From NCBI GenBank assembly GCA_039630575.1, contig JBCNUW010000004.1, positions 1-64,000 on the forward strand: DNA of 64,000 nt, in the 5' to 3' direction. Position 1 is the first letter of the stretch. Each line of letters begins with the position of its first letter. Made by a program: the position numbers and the translations under genes. Source of the DNA: Candidatus Hydrothermales bacterium. GTDB taxonomy: Bacteria > Hydrothermota > Hydrothermia > Hydrothermales > JAJRUZ01. Below the pieces are notes generated by a model that was not told where the DNA came from, ran no database searches, and saw only the letters and a list, made by a program, of their open reading frames with translations. Positions 37,313 to 43,434 of the stretch are shown piece by piece.

Positions 37313-38164
37313 CTAAACTAATTTTTCCTCATAAAAAATTTTCTTTATAGCCTCTTCAAAATCTGTTAAAGGTATCTTTAGAATTTTTTTTATTTTCTCA
37401 GAATTTAAAACATCAACGCCCTTTCTCTTTTTAACAAACTCAACTTTAAATTCTATTCCTTTTAACTTTTCAAAAATATTTTTTATCTCCTCTACAGATT
37501 TTAAAACTCCACTACCACAATTGTAAATACCCTCTAAAGAGAGCTCCATTACACCAATTACATATTCTGCAGCATCATATGAAAATATATACTCATACCT
37601 TGCATTATAATCATCGTAGAGATAGACAGTGTCCCTTTTTTCCCTTAAAGCTTTTAGAAAATCTGCTATAGGATTTCTTTCCATAAATGGTCCAAAAATC
37701 CTTGGAAATCTGAGTGATGTAAACTTTATATTCTTTTTCTTACTTAAAACATACAAAAGACCCTCCCCTGCAAACTTCTGCGAACCGTATAAATTATTGT
37801 GAAACTTTGCCTCTTCCTCTTCTGGAAATAAATTGTTATCATAAACACTTGCCGATGAGATGTAAATAAAATGACCACCACTTATTCGGTTAAGAATTTT
37901 AATAGGGTAAATCAAATTAACCTCTAAGGCCTCTAAATAATTTTTTTCTACTTGAAATTCTCCAGAAACAGCGGAGAGATAAACGAAATAATCAGCCTCT
38001 AAAGAAATATCAAAAAAATTATCAAAATAAAAAAATTCATCTTTAAACCAACTCTTTTTTCTCCTTGAAAACGCCTTAATTTTATAATTCTTTTCTTTTA
38101 ATTTTTCATAAAGTGATCTTCCCAAAAGATCTGAAAGACCAAATAATATAACTTTTTTTTCTAT
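37313..38164 (-). CDS. NAD-dependent epimerase/dehydratase (extended SDR); probable ATA start
   Basis: YISSASVY, YGSQK (YxxxK), LRFPRIFGP, YNCGSG. The Rossmann strand KKVILFGLSDLLG lies upstream of the tracked TTG (38125) and follows ATA at 38164. Confidence 0.82.
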   Translation of the reverse strand: MEKKVILFGLSDLLGRSLYEKLKEKNYKIKAFSRRKKSWFKDEFFYFDNFFDISLEADYFVYLSAVSGEFQVEKNYLEALEVNLIYPIKILNRISGGHFIYISSASVYDNNLFPEEEEAKFHNNLYGSQKFAGEGLLYVLSKKKNIKFTSLRFPRIFGPFMERNPIADFLKALREKRDTVYLYDDYNARYEYIFSYDAAEYVIGVMELSLEGIYNCGSGVLKSVEEIKNIFEKLKGIEFKVEFVKKRKGVDVLNSEKIKKILKIPLTDFEEAIKKIFYEEKLV

Positions 38165-38165
38165 T

Positions 38166-39095
38166 TTAGTAATTTAAAAGAATTGCACCGAGAAGTGGTA
38201 AAAATATTTCAATATGTAAAGTAAAAGAAACTCCCTTACCACCATCCTTTGTTGGCCTTTCAACAACATTTTGAAGGGGTCTATAATGTTGAATCTGATC
38301 AATATTGCATGCAAAAAAATTATAAACTCTATATCCAAGATTCCTTACCACTGAAAGACTTTTCAAAAAAACCTCTGGCATTAAGACAGCTGAAGCAACA
38401 TTAATCACCACTCCACCTCCCTCAAGTTTAGAAAGATAACTGATAAATCTTTTAAAATCCTTTAAAGTAGTAAACCCAACCTCATCGCCCTCAAGAAAAG
38501 GAAACATATGAATTATATCAGTACCAACAGCAACATGAAAACTCATTGGAATTTTCCTTTCATTTAAAAGACACATTAAACTTTTATCACTGTAGGGAGG
38601 ACTTTTCTCTAAAAGAACTTCAGGCACAACTTCTCCCATTCCCTTTTTTTCCTTATAACCTCTTTTGAGTGCTTCATTAAAAAATTCCATAGTCTCCTTT
38701 GTCATTCCAAACTTTCCATCTCTTATAGTCTCTTCAACAAATTCAGAAGTCTCACCAAACATAGCTATCTCAAAGTCATGAATAGCAACGGCACCCTGAC
38801 CAGCAAGCCAGGTAATATAACCTTCCTCTGCTAACTTTGATAAAAGAGGTGAAAGACCACATTTTATAACAGCATCACCAACCATCCATATGATCGGTTT
38901 TCTTTGATCCCTTGCATTTTTTAAATTTGAAACAAATTCCCTCAAATCGTTAGCCTTAAAAACCGCCGGAAGATAATCAAGAAACAGAGAAAATCTATCT
39001 GGAATACTATCCTTTATAAAATGGGAAACATTTAGTTTATTCCTCCTGTCCTTTATCGATATAAGTTTTAAATTAAAAATTTCTTCTTCCTTCAT
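38166..39095 (-). CDS. Deoxyhypusine-synthase-like fold protein of unknown function
   Basis: IWMVGDAVIKCGLSP, IHDFEIAMFGETSE.V, G.FGM, HVAVGTDIIH, SAVLMPEVFLK, HYRP..NVV.RP. Confidence 0.7.
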   Translation of the reverse strand: MKEEEIFNLKLISIKDRRNKLNVSHFIKDSIPDRFSLFLDYLPAVFKANDLREFVSNLKNARDQRKPIIWMVGDAVIKCGLSPLLSKLAEEGYITWLAGQGAVAIHDFEIAMFGETSEFVEETIRDGKFGMTKETMEFFNEALKRGYKEKKGMGEVVPEVLLEKSPPYSDKSLMCLLNERKIPMSFHVAVGTDIIHMFPFLEGDEVGFTTLKDFKRFISYLSKLEGGGVVINVASAVLMPEVFLKSLSVVRNLGYRVYNFFACNIDQIQHYRPLQNVVERPTKDGGKGVSFTLHIEIFLPLLGAILLNY

Positions 39096-40375
39096 ATTAT
39101 TACCTCTCCATCAAAATTGTCTTTATAGTTTATATTTAGTAAATTCAAAACTGTGGGAACAAAATCAACAATTTTAACATCATCTTTAACAATTTTTCTA
39201 CCCCTTATGTATATAAAAGCATCATCAAAAGTATGGACTCCCTCTATAGGTGAATCAACATAGGGCTCATCTAAATCAAACTCTGCTTTAAGATCATAAC
39301 CCATTTCAGGTATAATAATAAAATCAGGAGCTTTACCTATAAATTCTCTTCCAAATATTTCTAATCTTTTTTTATAACCCTTTATTCCTTCATAACTTAT
39401 AAGTTCATTCAAAAAATTTTCCACTTCTTCTTTTATTTCATTTTCCCAGTATAAGGCTCTTGAGAATCTTTCCTTTTTAAATAAATAAATTCTACCTGGT
39501 GCAAGCGTAAAAACTTTCGAAGTTTCAATAATGTTATTGTAATTGTAAAGTAAATCTCCTTTAAATTTTAATAAACCCTTTGATTTTAAAAAATAAAGAA
39601 TATTTATACTTTTTTTCAACTCTTTAAGACCGTGATCCGAAAGGATAATAAGCTCATCCTCCTCTTTTAAATTGTTTTCAAGAAAGGACATAATCCTTTT
39701 GTCAAGAAAAGAAAAGTAATCTTTCAATTTATAATAATCTTTAATGAAAAAATGAAAAAGCCTGTCAGTTTCCATAATATTTAGGATAATAACATCAAAA
39801 ATCTCATTTTTAATTATTTCCTCACAAACTTTGAATCTTTTATCTGTTACAGTAAATAACTCATTATAAAAAACTTTTTTCTTCTTATCATCCCTTGCCA
39901 TCCATGGGTCAAGATCAATAACATATTTTTCCTTTAAAAGAAAACTTTTCAAATTTTTTGGATAAACTGCCTTATCAATTTTTGGAGCAAGAAACCCTGA
40001 AATACAAACTGTATTTTTAACTTCAGGTGGAGGATAGGTAATAGGTAAATTTATATGTAAGACTCTTTTATTAAAATCCGATAAAATTTCAATAATGGTC
40101 TTTGTTTTAATATCTTTATAATTTGGTATAAAAAGAGTAAGATCATCTTTTATATCAATGAACCCAAAAATTCCATGAGAACCAGGAAGTTTACCAGTTA
40201 AAAGAGTTGCCCAGGCAACTGAAGAAATGGTAGGATAAACTGAACACATCTTCTTTATATCACCGTCTCTGAAAATTTTTTTTAAATAGGGTGTTATATT
40301 TTTTTCGCAAAAATCAATCAATAAAGTAAAGGAAACACCATCAAGACCTAAAACATAAAGTTTTTTTTTATTCAT
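39092..40375 (-). CDS. Alkaline-phosphatase-superfamily (nucleotide pyrophosphatase-type) protein, cytoplasmic
   Basis: LGLDG, PTISSVAW (Ser nucleophile region), PGSHGIFGF, ETDRLFH, SDHG, GVH; no signal peptide. Confidence 0.88.
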   Translation of the reverse strand: MNKKKLYVLGLDGVSFTLLIDFCEKNITPYLKKIFRDGDIKKMCSVYPTISSVAWATLLTGKLPGSHGIFGFIDIKDDLTLFIPNYKDIKTKTIIEILSDFNKRVLHINLPITYPPPEVKNTVCISGFLAPKIDKAVYPKNLKSFLLKEKYVIDLDPWMARDDKKKKVFYNELFTVTDKRFKVCEEIIKNEIFDVIILNIMETDRLFHFFIKDYYKLKDYFSFLDKRIMSFLENNLKEEDELIILSDHGLKELKKSINILYFLKSKGLLKFKGDLLYNYNNIIETSKVFTLAPGRIYLFKKERFSRALYWENEIKEEVENFLNELISYEGIKGYKKRLEIFGREFIGKAPDFIIIPEMGYDLKAEFDLDEPYVDSPIEGVHTFDDAFIYIRGRKIVKDDVKIVDFVPTVLNLLNINYKDNFDGEVII

Positions 40376-41480
40376 TACTAAAGTTTTCCTTTAAAACTTC
40401 AAAAACTTCTGGTCTTAAAATTTCTTTAACTAAATAAGCCCCACTCTTAAGAGCATCCCTAATTTTGGTCATACTTATATACTCTCTAAAACTATCATCA
40501 TGAGGACATGTATTCTCTGAAACAATTCCATCACATTTTTTGCATAAAAAAACAGCCTTTACCTTTATAATTTCTATACCTATATCAGGGTATTCCTCAA
40601 AAATTCTATGAGCAGCATATGGGTCATAAAAGTTCCCAACCCCTGCGTGATCCCTACCAACTATAAAATGAGTTGCGCCATAATTTTTTCTCACTATAGC
40701 ATGAAAAACAGCGTCTCTTGGTCCTGCATACCTCATTGGCGTAGTAAGACCTGATAGAACTACTCTCTCTTTTGGAAAATAATTATCTATAAGCACACGA
40801 TAACTTTTTAAAATTACATCATTTGAATAATCTCCCTCTTTTTTTCTTCCCAAAATTGGATGTATAAATAGACAGTCTGTTATCTCCAAGGCAATTCTTT
40901 GAAGGTATTCATGAGCTATATGGGGAGCATTTCGTGTCTGAAATGCACAAACAGTTTTAAAATTTTTTTCCTTAAAAATCTTCCTTGTTTCTTGCGGTGT
41001 AAGTTCATACATAGAGAAAGGATGTTTCGGTCTTTTAAAAAGCCATACTTTACCTCCTATAGCATATTCTCCTTTTGATTTAAAATAAAAAACACCTGGA
41101 TGCTCATTTGAATCAGTTCCAAAAACTCTTTTAGAAACATAATTTGAATCAAATCTATAAACCTCCTCAATTTCTACCATTCCGAAGATTTCATCCTTAA
41201 AAGAAACTAAAATCTCACCACTATGGGGTATTTCTTTGAATGTTTTTTCATCTATTTGTAGTATAATCGGTATAGTGAAAGGGTAATTATTTAATAATCT
41301 TCCTCTTTCACAAACACTTTCAAGTTCATCCTTTATCATAAAACCTTCAAGTGGAGTGAAGCTTCCTATTGCAATCTTTTCAAGATCGAAAAGAGTATCC
41401 TCATCAACTTCAACTTTTTTTAGATCCTTTACGATCGGGATTTCTTTGTCCTTAGGGATTAATCTTTGAACAAGTTCCAT
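40368..41480 (-). CDS. sat: Sulfate adenylyltransferase (ATP sulfurylase)
   Basis: FQTRN, HIAH, MRYAGPR, GRDHAG, C-terminal Zn motif C..C...CPH, SMTKIR. Confidence 0.95.
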   Translation of the reverse strand: MELVQRLIPKDKEIPIVKDLKKVEVDEDTLFDLEKIAIGSFTPLEGFMIKDELESVCERGRLLNNYPFTIPIILQIDEKTFKEIPHSGEILVSFKDEIFGMVEIEEVYRFDSNYVSKRVFGTDSNEHPGVFYFKSKGEYAIGGKVWLFKRPKHPFSMYELTPQETRKIFKEKNFKTVCAFQTRNAPHIAHEYLQRIALEITDCLFIHPILGRKKEGDYSNDVILKSYRVLIDNYFPKERVVLSGLTTPMRYAGPRDAVFHAIVRKNYGATHFIVGRDHAGVGNFYDPYAAHRIFEEYPDIGIEIIKVKAVFLCKKCDGIVSENTCPHDDSFREYISMTKIRDALKSGAYLVKEILRPEVFEVLKENFSNE

Positions 41481-41574
41481 TTTTATTTAAAATTTGAAAA
41501 AAAAAATTTTAAAATCTTATTATATAAAATCTTAATATTTGGGTTCAATACCCTAAATAGATTGCAGGTATAAA

Positions 41575-41844
41575 ATGAGATTAAAATTAGCCCTTTTATT
41601 AGGGTTTACATTTTTGGCCCTAATTCTAAACTGTGCTCCAAAAATGGCTTCAAAGGAAACACTACAGAGAATTGAGGAGCTTAAGGCTCAAATAGAGAAA
41701 ATTAATTCGGAAATTGCTGCCTGTGAAGAAGAAAAGAAAAATCTTACAGCAAAAAAAAGTGAAAAGATTAAACTAATCGAAAAACTGAAAGTAGAGAGAG
41801 ATTCTTTAAGAACCCTTCTTGAGCTTATAAAACAGGGATATTAA
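41575..41844 (+). CDS. Small coiled-coil lipoprotein
   Basis: Signal ending ILN-C20; the mature 70 aa are a continuous heptad repeat with a second Cys (C50). Confidence 0.78.
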   Translation: MRLKLALLLGFTFLALILNCAPKMASKETLQRIEELKAQIEKINSEIAACEEEKKNLTAKKSEKIKLIEKLKVERDSLRTLLELIKQGY

Positions 41845-41856
41845 GGGGAGGGGAAA

Positions 41857-42438
41857 ATGAAAAAATTATTTATAATTCTTTCATTTACTTTTTCTCTTTT
41901 AGCTCAAGAAAAATTGACTGAAGAAAAAGCCAAAGCACAAATTGTTGAACTTCAAAATCAAATTGAAAAGTTAAAGGAAAGTTTAAATTCATGCCAGAAA
42001 GAACTCGAAGAGATGAAAAAAGAGCTTTTGCCTCTCGATAATGAAATTACTTCAATACAGAATGAAATAAATTCTCTAAAGAATGAGTTAGCTAAGTATC
42101 CATCTGAATATGAAGTTAAAAGGGGTGACTTCCTTGCAAAAATAGCAGCATACCCTTTTATATATGGAACTCATAGGGCATGGCCAAGAATCTGGAGAGC
42201 AAACAGAGATTTGATCAAAAATCCTGATCTAATTTACCCTGGTTGGAAATTAAAAATACCACACGGACTTGACAAAACATACACTGTTATAAAAGGCGAT
42301 TACTTATGGAAGATAGCAGCATTCTGGTGGATCTATAGGGATGGAAGAAAGTGGAAAGCAATTTATGAGGCAAACAAGGATAAAATAAAGGATCCAAACA
42401 TTATATACCCTGGACAGGAATTCATAATTCCAAGATAA
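41857..42438 (+). CDS. Secreted coiled-coil + tandem LysM peptidoglycan-binding protein
   Basis: Sec signal ...LLA-Q; about 60-aa coiled coil; two LysM domains (YEVKRGDFLAKIA...NPDLIYPG; YTVIKGDYLWKIA...DPNIIYPGQ). Confidence 0.92.
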   Translation: MKKLFIILSFTFSLLAQEKLTEEKAKAQIVELQNQIEKLKESLNSCQKELEEMKKELLPLDNEITSIQNEINSLKNELAKYPSEYEVKRGDFLAKIAAYPFIYGTHRAWPRIWRANRDLIKNPDLIYPGWKLKIPHGLDKTYTVIKGDYLWKIAAFWWIYRDGRKWKAIYEANKDKIKDPNIIYPGQEFIIPR

Positions 42439-42477: not shown

Positions 42478-43434
42478 GTGGAGATTAGAGTTTTTACTTT
42501 AAAACCTAAAAGAGTAAGAGAGATTTTAGGAATTTTAAATCAAAATTTAAAAGTATTACAGACAAATTTCTCTGGAAAAATTACTGTGAGGGGAGAAGAA
42601 ATAAAATTTGAAGGAACAAAAAAAGAATTTGAAAAATTGAAAGATCTTTTTAAAAAACTTGAATCAAAAGCAGAGGAGGGAAAATTTTTTGAACCGGAGG
42701 AAATTGTTGAAGTTCTACATAATAAAAATTTTTTAAACGAAAGGGAAAGGGGGAAAAATGTAATTATAACACCAAAAAAAATAGTTGAACCCAAAACAGA
42801 AAATCAAATCCTCTATGTTGAAGCCTTAAGAAAATACCCGATAACTTTTTCAATAGGTCCTGCAGGAACGGGTAAAACATACCTTGCCGTAGCTGTTGCT
42901 CTTGAAAGTCTCATGGAAGAAATGGTTGAAAGGATTATTCTAACAAGACCAGCTGTTGAAGCAGGAGAATCTCTTGGATTTTTACCTGGAAGCTTTCAGG
43001 AGAAAGTCGATCCTTACCTTAGACCCCTTTATGATGCATTGTTTGATATGATGCCTTATGAAAGGATAAAAAAATTGATGAATACAGGTGTGATAGAAAT
43101 TGCTCCACTTGCCTACATGAGGGGAAGGACACTATCAAATGCCTTTGTAATTCTTGATGAAGCACAAAATACAAACTATTTGCAGATGAAAATGTTTTTG
43201 ACAAGAATGGGAATAAAAACAAAATTAGCCATAACAGGTGACGTAACTCAGATTGATTTAAAAGAGAAGGAAGAATCAGGTCTTTTAATCGCTGAAAAAA
43301 TTTTAAAAGATTTAGACGGAATTAAATTCATATACTTGGGACCAGAGGATATAATAAGACACCCTATTGTAAAATCAATAATAATTGCTTACGAAAAATA
43401 TGAAGGAAAGAAAAGAGAAGGAAAAAATAGTTAG
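42478..43434 (+). CDS. phoH: PhoH family ATPase
   Basis: GPAGTGKT, RPAVEAGE.LGFLPG, AYMRGRT, DEAQN, GDVTQID. Confidence 0.95.
   Translation: MEIRVFTLKPKRVREILGILNQNLKVLQTNFSGKITVRGEEIKFEGTKKEFEKLKDLFKKLESKAEEGKFFEPEEIVEVLHNKNFLNERERGKNVIITPKKIVEPKTENQILYVEALRKYPITFSIGPAGTGKTYLAVAVALESLMEEMVERIILTRPAVEAGESLGFLPGSFQEKVDPYLRPLYDALFDMMPYERIKKLMNTGVIEIAPLAYMRGRTLSNAFVILDEAQNTNYLQMKMFLTRMGIKTKLAITGDVTQIDLKEKEESGLLIAEKILKDLDGIKFIYLGPEDIIRHPIVKSIIIAYEKYEGKKREGKNS

Follow-up and report, generated by a model that had tools for sequence, protein, structure and literature searches.

Lpp, the lipoprotein with which any tether joining outer membrane to cell wall is naturally compared, is a homotrimer. A survey of outer-membrane tethers, which covers Lpp, Pal, OmpA, and OmpM, describes the wall link of Lpp as covalent, via its C-terminal Lys, and Lpp itself as limited to some Gammaproteobacteria; the main text of this survey names no WOR-3, Ignavibacteria, or Calditrichota (bioRxiv 2021.05.31.446380). 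In Salmonella, the murein lipoprotein LppB is described as a coiled coil whose chains are joined by a disulfide and which assembles with Lpp into heterotrimers (bioRxiv 2025.11.13.688167, PMC12681736). Regarding proteins with LysM domains, BB0323 of Borrelia is reported to be required for outer-membrane stability, to bind peptidoglycan, and to be cut into two polypeptides, and deletion of its LysM left outer-membrane organisation unaffected (PMC5462797). In addition, the abundant lipoprotein WP_009060351 of Methylacidiphilum has been proposed as a non-Lpp link from the outer membrane to the wall (PMC10260701).

The locus considered here lies in a window (the whole stretch of DNA that was analysed, 64,000 nucleotides) from a Candidatus Hydrothermales bacterium, whose assembly is referred to below as the Hydrothermales genome. 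The original prediction, made from the letters of the window, had paired a coiled-coil lipoprotein (gene A) with a secreted LysM protein (gene B) as the two halves of a disulfide-locked tether. Both open reading frames are present, adjacent and 12 nt apart, as it had claimed, and the features discussed in this work are the following:

41494..41523, plus strand: sigma-70-like promoter match, 10/12, in the 94 nt that separate A from the divergent sat gene
41575..41844, plus strand: gene A, 89-aa lipoprotein with signal peptide 1-19, lipid Cys20, short linker, ~64-residue coil, and terminal Tyr
41632..41634, plus strand: Cys20 codon of A, predicted lipidation site; the +2 residue is Ala
41722..41724, plus strand: Cys50 codon of A, heptad d, helix-cap position 24, predicted partner of B Cys46
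41845..41856, plus strand: A-B spacer of 12 nt, a purine-rich ribosome-binding site for B as read directly from the sequence
41857..42438, plus strand: gene B, 193-aa secreted protein with cleavable signal 1-16, coil ~21-82, and LysM domains 84-135 and 141-192
41992..41994, plus strand: Cys46 codon of B, heptad d, helix-cap position 25
42106..42432, plus strand: the LysM pair of B, which is predicted to grip peptidoglycan non-covalently; the nearest solved sequence relative is the LysM of Kbp
42478..43434, plus strand: phoH-like gene, conserved downstream neighbour, given as context outside the rod

Downstream of B the gene order is phoH, 7TM-HD, ybeY, and CNNM, and the A-B operon is divergent from sat. 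The divergent operon (minus strand, 37313-41480) encodes sulfate adenylyltransferase, a phosphodiesterase-family protein, an ArgZ-like Rossmann protein, and an epimerase. The promoter-like region noted ahead of A does exist, with its score of 10/12, but it is ordinary: 18 such sites were found where 12.1 ± 4.0 are expected, and 43% of the 186 divergent operon starts in the Hydrothermales genome score at least 10. Matches of 11-12/12 occur in 84/259 loci of the family versus 10% of the operon starts of the Hydrothermales genome, an imperfect cross-genome control, and they give a weak hint of high expression; codon bias in this genome is too weak for judging expression.

Gene A encodes the predicted coiled-coil lipoprotein, with the lipobox Cys20 as putative lipidation site and one further cysteine, Cys50, and its chain ends in Tyr, i.e., not in Lys, as had been noted. 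The lipobox, ILNC, is non-canonical, close orthologues have canonical ones, and Cys20 is invariant in 56 aligned A proteins, a partly circular count since the rows were chosen by their lipobox. Mature A is mostly 60-74 aa long across the family, no Pfam or NCBIfam family scores above its cut-off for A, and its look-alikes in the Atlas are hypothetical proteins.

Gene B encodes the secreted coil followed by two LysM domains that had been predicted: 193 aa, with a signal ending at Ala16 and a single cysteine, Cys46. Two stretches match Pfam LysM (PF01476) with 67 bits against a gathering score of 20.9, the AlphaFold monomer has a mean pLDDT of 86.5 and a long helix at residues 22-79, and a fold search returns LysM structures. 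At 1.47 Å per residue this helix would be ~8.5 nm long. As judged from the family, the LysM domains would bind the glycan of peptidoglycan; this LysM class resembles Kbp and the LysM proteins of type IV pili, and many B proteins tolerate an unpaired Cys in these domains. Just ahead of the coil, 159/264 B proteins carry a motif of a small residue, Gln, and an acidic residue.

B proteins fall into three length classes, namely coil plus one LysM (~140 aa), coil plus two LysM (~195 aa), and coil plus a helical insert and one or two LysM (225-300 aa), which were seen across L031-L110 and L196-L331, with the coil of A staying near 56-67 residues. The long forms have an extra helical domain of ~85 residues. 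BB0323, whose structure we take to be spectrin-like, suggested itself as a relative of these long forms; a Foldseek comparison does not support the link, and BB0323 is not among the matches listed in the fold searches of short and long B. Searches of PDB sequences with the pair returned only generic coils and LysM proteins. In WOR-3 family f25 (two loci, L338:952-1327 and L339) the B coil comes without LysM, with a short basic-hydrophobic tail and a terminal Trp, and both coils are Cys-free.

The pair is conserved in WOR-3 and in five other phylum-level groups, upstream of phoH; the names of homologues put the Hydrothermales genome itself in WOR-3. The B profile matches 140/272 WOR-3 genomes at E ≤ 1e-30, and the A profile matches 98/101 genomes in the phylum of G272 (inferred to be KSB1-type), 73/81 in Calditrichota (the phylum of G273), 40/151 in Bacteroidota in the wide sense (that of G275, with the named loci mostly from Ignavibacteria), 39/51 in the phylum of G277 (labelled Gemmatimonadota, probably Latescibacterota), and 17/51 in Cloacimonadota (that of G276). 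In these five phyla the A matches are nearly always single copy; a few A-profile matches are spurious or hit B itself (L302, L309, L332-L334). As the original prediction required of a real pair, the genes are syntenic in relatives: B lies directly 3′ of A in 135/141 loci picked by A, and A directly 5′ of B in 100/103 WOR-3 loci found through B (the 103 were fetched out of 148 matches). Of the six A loci lacking an adjacent B, one is at a contig edge, two are false matches, and three have a second lipoprotein inserted, two of which keep B further on; the three WOR-3 exceptions are one edge and two cases of B alone. The P-loop motif of phoH is found downstream in 84 of the 88 loci with at least 700 nt available, which suggests that the locus is old and vertically inherited. 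The module is also dispensable: searches found neither A nor B in the WOR-3 families f9 (0/7) and f11 (0/6) or in the 15 f32 genomes searched with A, and B stands without A upstream in two f42 loci (L185, L190).

Several variants of A were met during these searches. In one WOR-3 genus (g96, family f35) all six loci, L345-L350, encode A as a 136-aa fusion of lipoprotein, coil, and LysM, so that lipid, coil, and wall grip are on a single chain, and B is kept downstream; the Cys of A is at the coil end and that of B at the start of a LysM helix, possibly a different pairing. This fused form came from the genome searches, and long fused forms sought among proteins with the A profile gave 19 proteins, mostly SMC and other generic coils, which is weak evidence. 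The three-gene loci L310, L312, and L313 have A, then the second lipoprotein, then B (seen in L312 and L313); in the second lipoprotein a Cys is similarly placed and the long tail is acidic and Pro-rich, and A and this chain may be alternative partners of B. Short coiled-coil lipoproteins of a second WOR-3 family were met as well (G000:C1:100157-100435 in the Hydrothermales genome; L352-L367), with a Pro/Lys-rich tail mostly ending in Lys and usually encoded upstream of a gene for a ~255-aa lipoprotein; lineages lacking A and B have them too. The weaker A-profile matches L352-L367, from WOR-3 families without B, belong to this different family and were rejected as A.

Evidence that A and B work together comes from their cysteines. 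For this comparison the coils were anchored at the N-cap with Cys-blind profiles (six B and two A anchors, all from Cys-free Cloacimonadota pairs, were set by hand), 264 pairs were kept once 15 duplicates and three loci whose A was truncated or false had been removed, and Cys in B was counted only at positions 5-61, which leaves out one Cys each in L043, L187, and L197. In the Hydrothermales pair the two cysteines are at +31 (A) and +30 (B) from the mature N-termini, and the hydrophobicity profiles of the family place both at heptad d, in agreement with what had been read from the single locus. A coil Cys is present in both chains in 170 pairs, in neither in 89, in A only in 4, and in B only in 1, so that a lone coil Cys is rare (5/175). 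The pairs occupy about ten positions along the coils: 10/11, 11/11, 14/14, 17/18, 24/25 (the Hydrothermales pair), 25/25, 28/28-29, 41/42, 45/46, 52/53, and 60/60 in A/B numbering, with 45/45 and 45/43 in Ignavibacteria. The offset is 0 or +1 in 161/170 pairs; when partners were shuffled 5000 times, such offsets averaged 32 pairs and never exceeded 52. The remaining nine are 45/43 (offset -2), 21 pairs are at the off-core 45/45, and both of these states are ascribed to coil-end indels in Ignavibacteria, 45/43 being a short deletion in B. Since the positions shift in the same direction in both chains, the two helices should be parallel.

As kin share Cys states, changes were also counted on trees (FastTree). 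On the tree of the post-coil part of B there are 34 state changes in A, 31 in B, and 35 in the joint state, i.e., the two cysteines move together, as the original prediction had asked. The Hydrothermales state, 24/25, changed in the same direction in 7/7 independent pairs (p 0.016), and the presence of Cys, on a Cys-masked concatenated tree, agrees in 8.1/9 pairs with none opposite (p 0.008); the other single states had too few pairs for the test. Among ten loci examined later, five have Cys in both coils and all five fit the register, three have none, and the other two are L344, with Cys in A only, and a locus with the B Cys in LysM.

The pairing is also visible with the cysteines set aside. 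The interface charge score is +1.3 for A-A, +1.0 for B-B, and -5.1 for A-B, and the A-B score is better than the homodimer mean in 263/263 pairs. The scoring left out one pair that carries an indel and, in the Ignavibacteria indel states, masked B beyond position 38. Shuffling the partners brings the A-B score to -1.7, and slipping the register by one heptad brings it to about 0. Lys or Arg at core positions 28, 38, and 49 of A face acidic residues of B. Furthermore, of the 25 column pairs with the highest Cys-masked mutual information, about 15 are contacts of a parallel coil (a-g′, g-a′, e-g′, d-d′, a-d′), and some of the other top pairs, which are far apart, likely reflect ancestry. A heteromer is therefore what the charge patterns favour over homo-oligomers, and a parallel heteromeric coiled coil of A and B can be predicted from these sequences with high confidence.

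Regarding its stoichiometry, a 1:1 dimer would be the simplest reading. The cysteine contacts are, by heptad, d-d′, e-d′, a-g′, and a-a′. An ideal dimer has its closest contact at d-d′ (C-beta 3.5 Å), and its a-g′ distance is 5.6 Å, against 3.8-4.4 Å in higher orders, in a geometry calculation that uses no sequence and is therefore neutral between dimer and higher order. The off-centre Cys pairs are all on one flank (a/e of A with g/d of B), as in a trimer or tetramer, and the co-varying charge pairs are on both flanks.

Our proposal for how the pair works is as follows. A and B would be co-expressed and exported, A being lipidated and B freed by signal peptidase I, after which the two chains would zip N-terminus to N-terminus into a parallel, in-register coiled coil whose specificity derives from complementary charges. 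A would supply an N-terminal lipid anchor at one end of the rod, and B, a soluble periplasmic chain, would contribute the other helix together with the one or two LysM domains at the opposite end, whose grip on peptidoglycan would be non-covalent. The product would be a rigid strut of ~8.5 nm from a membrane, probably the outer one, to the wall, locked by an optional interchain disulfide (here between Cys50 of A and Cys46 of B, d-d′), a staple that would have been gained, lost, and moved along the rod many times. As a whole, this lipid-anchored heteromeric rod that tethers membrane to wall, with its optional disulfide, is the best explanation of the data and is moderately probable; that tethering is the main job of the pair is, taken by itself, likely. 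Counted against it are the lineages without the module, those with B alone, and the B of f25 with no LysM.

The rod could instead be a scaffold, ruler, or regulator that bears no load and holds a third protein, for example a hydrolase or a component of division or secretion, at a set spacing from the wall, in the manner of TsaP, EnvC, or coils of the FtsLB type. The Hydrothermales genome already has a Pal-like lipoprotein with an OmpA domain (G000:C29:3142-3648), and the OmpA domain (PF00691) passes its cut-off at seven places, this one and six more, so that A-B is not the sole possible tether in this genome. The likeness of the B LysM class to Kbp and type IV pilus proteins, the ~85-residue helical domain of the long B forms, the lineage that inserts an acidic-tailed second lipoprotein, and the one that swaps LysM for another tail would all suit such a role, and the BB0323 LysM deletion mentioned above, as far as its published description goes, counts by analogy against a tether. 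However, neither chain has an enzyme domain, the only conserved enzyme neighbours are the housekeeping run from phoH to ybeY, and the short WOR-3 forms expose hardly any surface other than coil and LysM. The DivIC, FtsL, and EnvC profiles match below threshold and in a way generic to coils, and these labels, together with an Rz-like one, were rejected on that ground; the frequency of strong promoters, with its imperfect control, hints weakly at high expression as well. We consider a scaffold role unlikely.

The same heteromeric rod could also stand on the other side of the wall, with A in the inner membrane and the rod acting as a spacer between that membrane and the wall. A parallel geometry works from either membrane, and an attachment of this kind has a precedent in the account of Dickeya OutB (PMC12274547). 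In E. coli, the sorting of lipoproteins follows the +2 rule. Sorting rules of the E. coli type may not hold in these phyla, and of LolA, Lnt, and Omp85, which are all present in the Hydrothermales genome, LolA is matched weakly (E 1e-6). Against an inner-membrane location, the +2 residue of A is never Asp (0/264), and the short linker and the coil of 60-70 residues resemble those of Lpp and OprI, with sub-threshold NF040598 matches in 34/56 A proteins. The missing +2 Asp and the presence of LolA, Lnt, and Omp85 make the outer membrane the likelier anchor, a reasoning that rests on the E. coli rule; if the rod is a tether, the outer membrane is very likely to be where A sits, and the inner-membrane spacer is quite unlikely.

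As for the cysteines of the proposed tether, they most probably form a disulfide, an expectation drawn from their placement in the coils. The bond would be optional, since about a third of the pairs have no Cys pair. The original prediction held that it would suit a thermophile, and this did not hold up: 89/264 pairs lack the Cys pair, whose presence has no relation to thermophily as gauged by composition of the flanking genes, a crude proxy (IVYWREL, p 0.96; charged-versus-polar bias, p 0.74; 142 versus 78 loci), and the thermophile link was rejected. In the Hydrothermales genome, which is 94.7% complete, no match to DsbB, VKOR, or a DsbA-type protein was found by a search that distant oxidases could escape. 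Similarly, in 80 carrier genomes DsbB is found in none and VKOR in three, despite the apparently paired periplasmic cysteines, and both are absent from 44/46 genomes with a Cys pair. Either the bond forms by some route other than the usual enzymes, or the Cys pair has another function, such as bridging a metal or oxidising only under stress, like a switch, with no standing disulfide in a heteromer that is otherwise real. The lack of DsbB and VKOR would fit this, as would the unpaired Cys tolerated in the LysM domains of many B proteins and the lack of a bias towards even Cys numbers in 83 proteins of the Hydrothermales genome predicted, crudely, to be exported (0.48 versus 0.42 ± 0.06). A simple staple is nevertheless better suited to about ten positions and four geometries with no common flanking ligands, lone coil cysteines are rare, and proximity in a zipped coil might allow oxidation with no enzyme, all of which makes a metal bridge or switch very unlikely.

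The two chains seem to share their ancestry as well as their rod. The gap-free alignment of the coils noted in the original prediction stands at the level of family profiles, which align in the same register without gaps (hhalign 96.8%, 57 columns); the resemblance of the two single coils carries little weight, since coils match each other generically. In the Hydrothermales genome the A profile matches B at E 6.5e-7. The gap-free profiles, taken with the A-LysM form of the WOR-3 genus, make it probable that the pair goes back to a duplicated coil-LysM gene. That A and B each form only their own homo-oligomer (A a trimer like that of Lpp, B a LysM dimer) and are alike through tandem duplication would agree with this apparent paralogy and with relatives sharing states by descent, but it is extremely improbable, as paralogy explains neither the joint movement of the Cys positions on the tree nor the off-centre a-g′ and e-d′ Cys pairs, and like chains repel by charge and complementarity is lost with shuffled partners.

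No description of the A-B pair was found in the open literature searched, in line with the statement of the original prediction that it knew of none, and a look-up by sequence gave nothing either; a supplementary gene table could mention it. The pair points to an undescribed way of tying membrane to wall in several little-studied phyla, and a single-copy, two-chain strut in 98/101 and 73/81 of the sampled genomes of two phyla would add a widespread and independently built tether. Its ~30 coupled shifts of a Cys pair are, in addition, an unusually clean natural record of two-chain co-evolution, and they prompt one to ask by what route disulfides arise where the canonical Dsb pathway is missing. 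A bolder reading, which we hold only tentatively and consider doubtful as it stands, is that A-B is the ancestral, near-universal outer membrane-wall tether of several Bacteroidota-related phyla, built from two paralogous chains, with a staple reinvented at about ten positions without DsbB or VKOR. If so, the system would take its place beside Lpp, Pal, OmpA, and OmpM, either the zipped coil would oxidise itself or these phyla would own an unrecognised periplasmic oxidase, and the staple might render the tether redox-switchable.

Among the known systems, A is like Lpp and OprI in being a small lipoprotein with a short linker and a near-pure coiled coil of similar length, and in its proposed use as a membrane-wall strut. 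It scores 18 bits against the NF040598 cut-off of 43 (E ≤ 0.01 in 34/56 A members), and PF04728 has no match in the Hydrothermales genome nor among the families listed for A members. Unlike Lpp, A here has no terminal Lys, its partner is the product of a separate gene with LysM domains, and its A-A charge score of +1.3 would disfavour a homo-oligomer of the Lpp type. With no terminal Lys and no match to an L,D-transpeptidase (YkuD) in the Hydrothermales genome (94.7% complete), a covalent link of the Lpp type is not available here. Such an attachment was rejected for this genome, and the family shows no association with it: a terminal Lys occurs in 108/264 A proteins (with 17% Lys across the preceding five residues) and a YkuD match in 37/80 carrier genomes, and the two are unlinked (14/34 versus 23/46).

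The nearest disulfide-bonded tether is LppB, whose bond, as described, is homotypic (C78-C78) and at a fixed C-terminal place, in contrast to the heterotypic and mobile bond predicted for A-B; LppB is linked to the wall covalently via Lys and LdtB, whereas the grip predicted for A-B is LysM on the non-lipidated chain. BB0323 and LipL71/LruA of Leptospira are, like B, envelope proteins with a C-terminal LysM; each is encoded by one gene and is much longer, and the accounts drawn on here note neither a two-gene heterodimer nor a moving Cys pair. Of LipL71/LruA (NF033163, a single lipoprotein chain of ~470 aa), B matches only the coil-LysM C-terminal part, with 86 bits against a cut-off of 600. 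The Methylacidiphilum protein, compared by its description, also comes from an under-studied phylum, and it differs in being a homo-dimer or tetramer of 139-aa chains for which that description reports no LysM partner. Finally, tethers of the Pal/OmpA type, as surveyed, share with A-B the combination of a lipid anchor and a non-covalent peptidoglycan-binding domain, and Pal differs from it in being one chain with an OmpA-like domain (PF00691, found in neither A nor B) and no coiled-coil rod. By its sequences a member of neither family, the A-B pair is likened to both Lpp and Pal in the way it is predicted to work.
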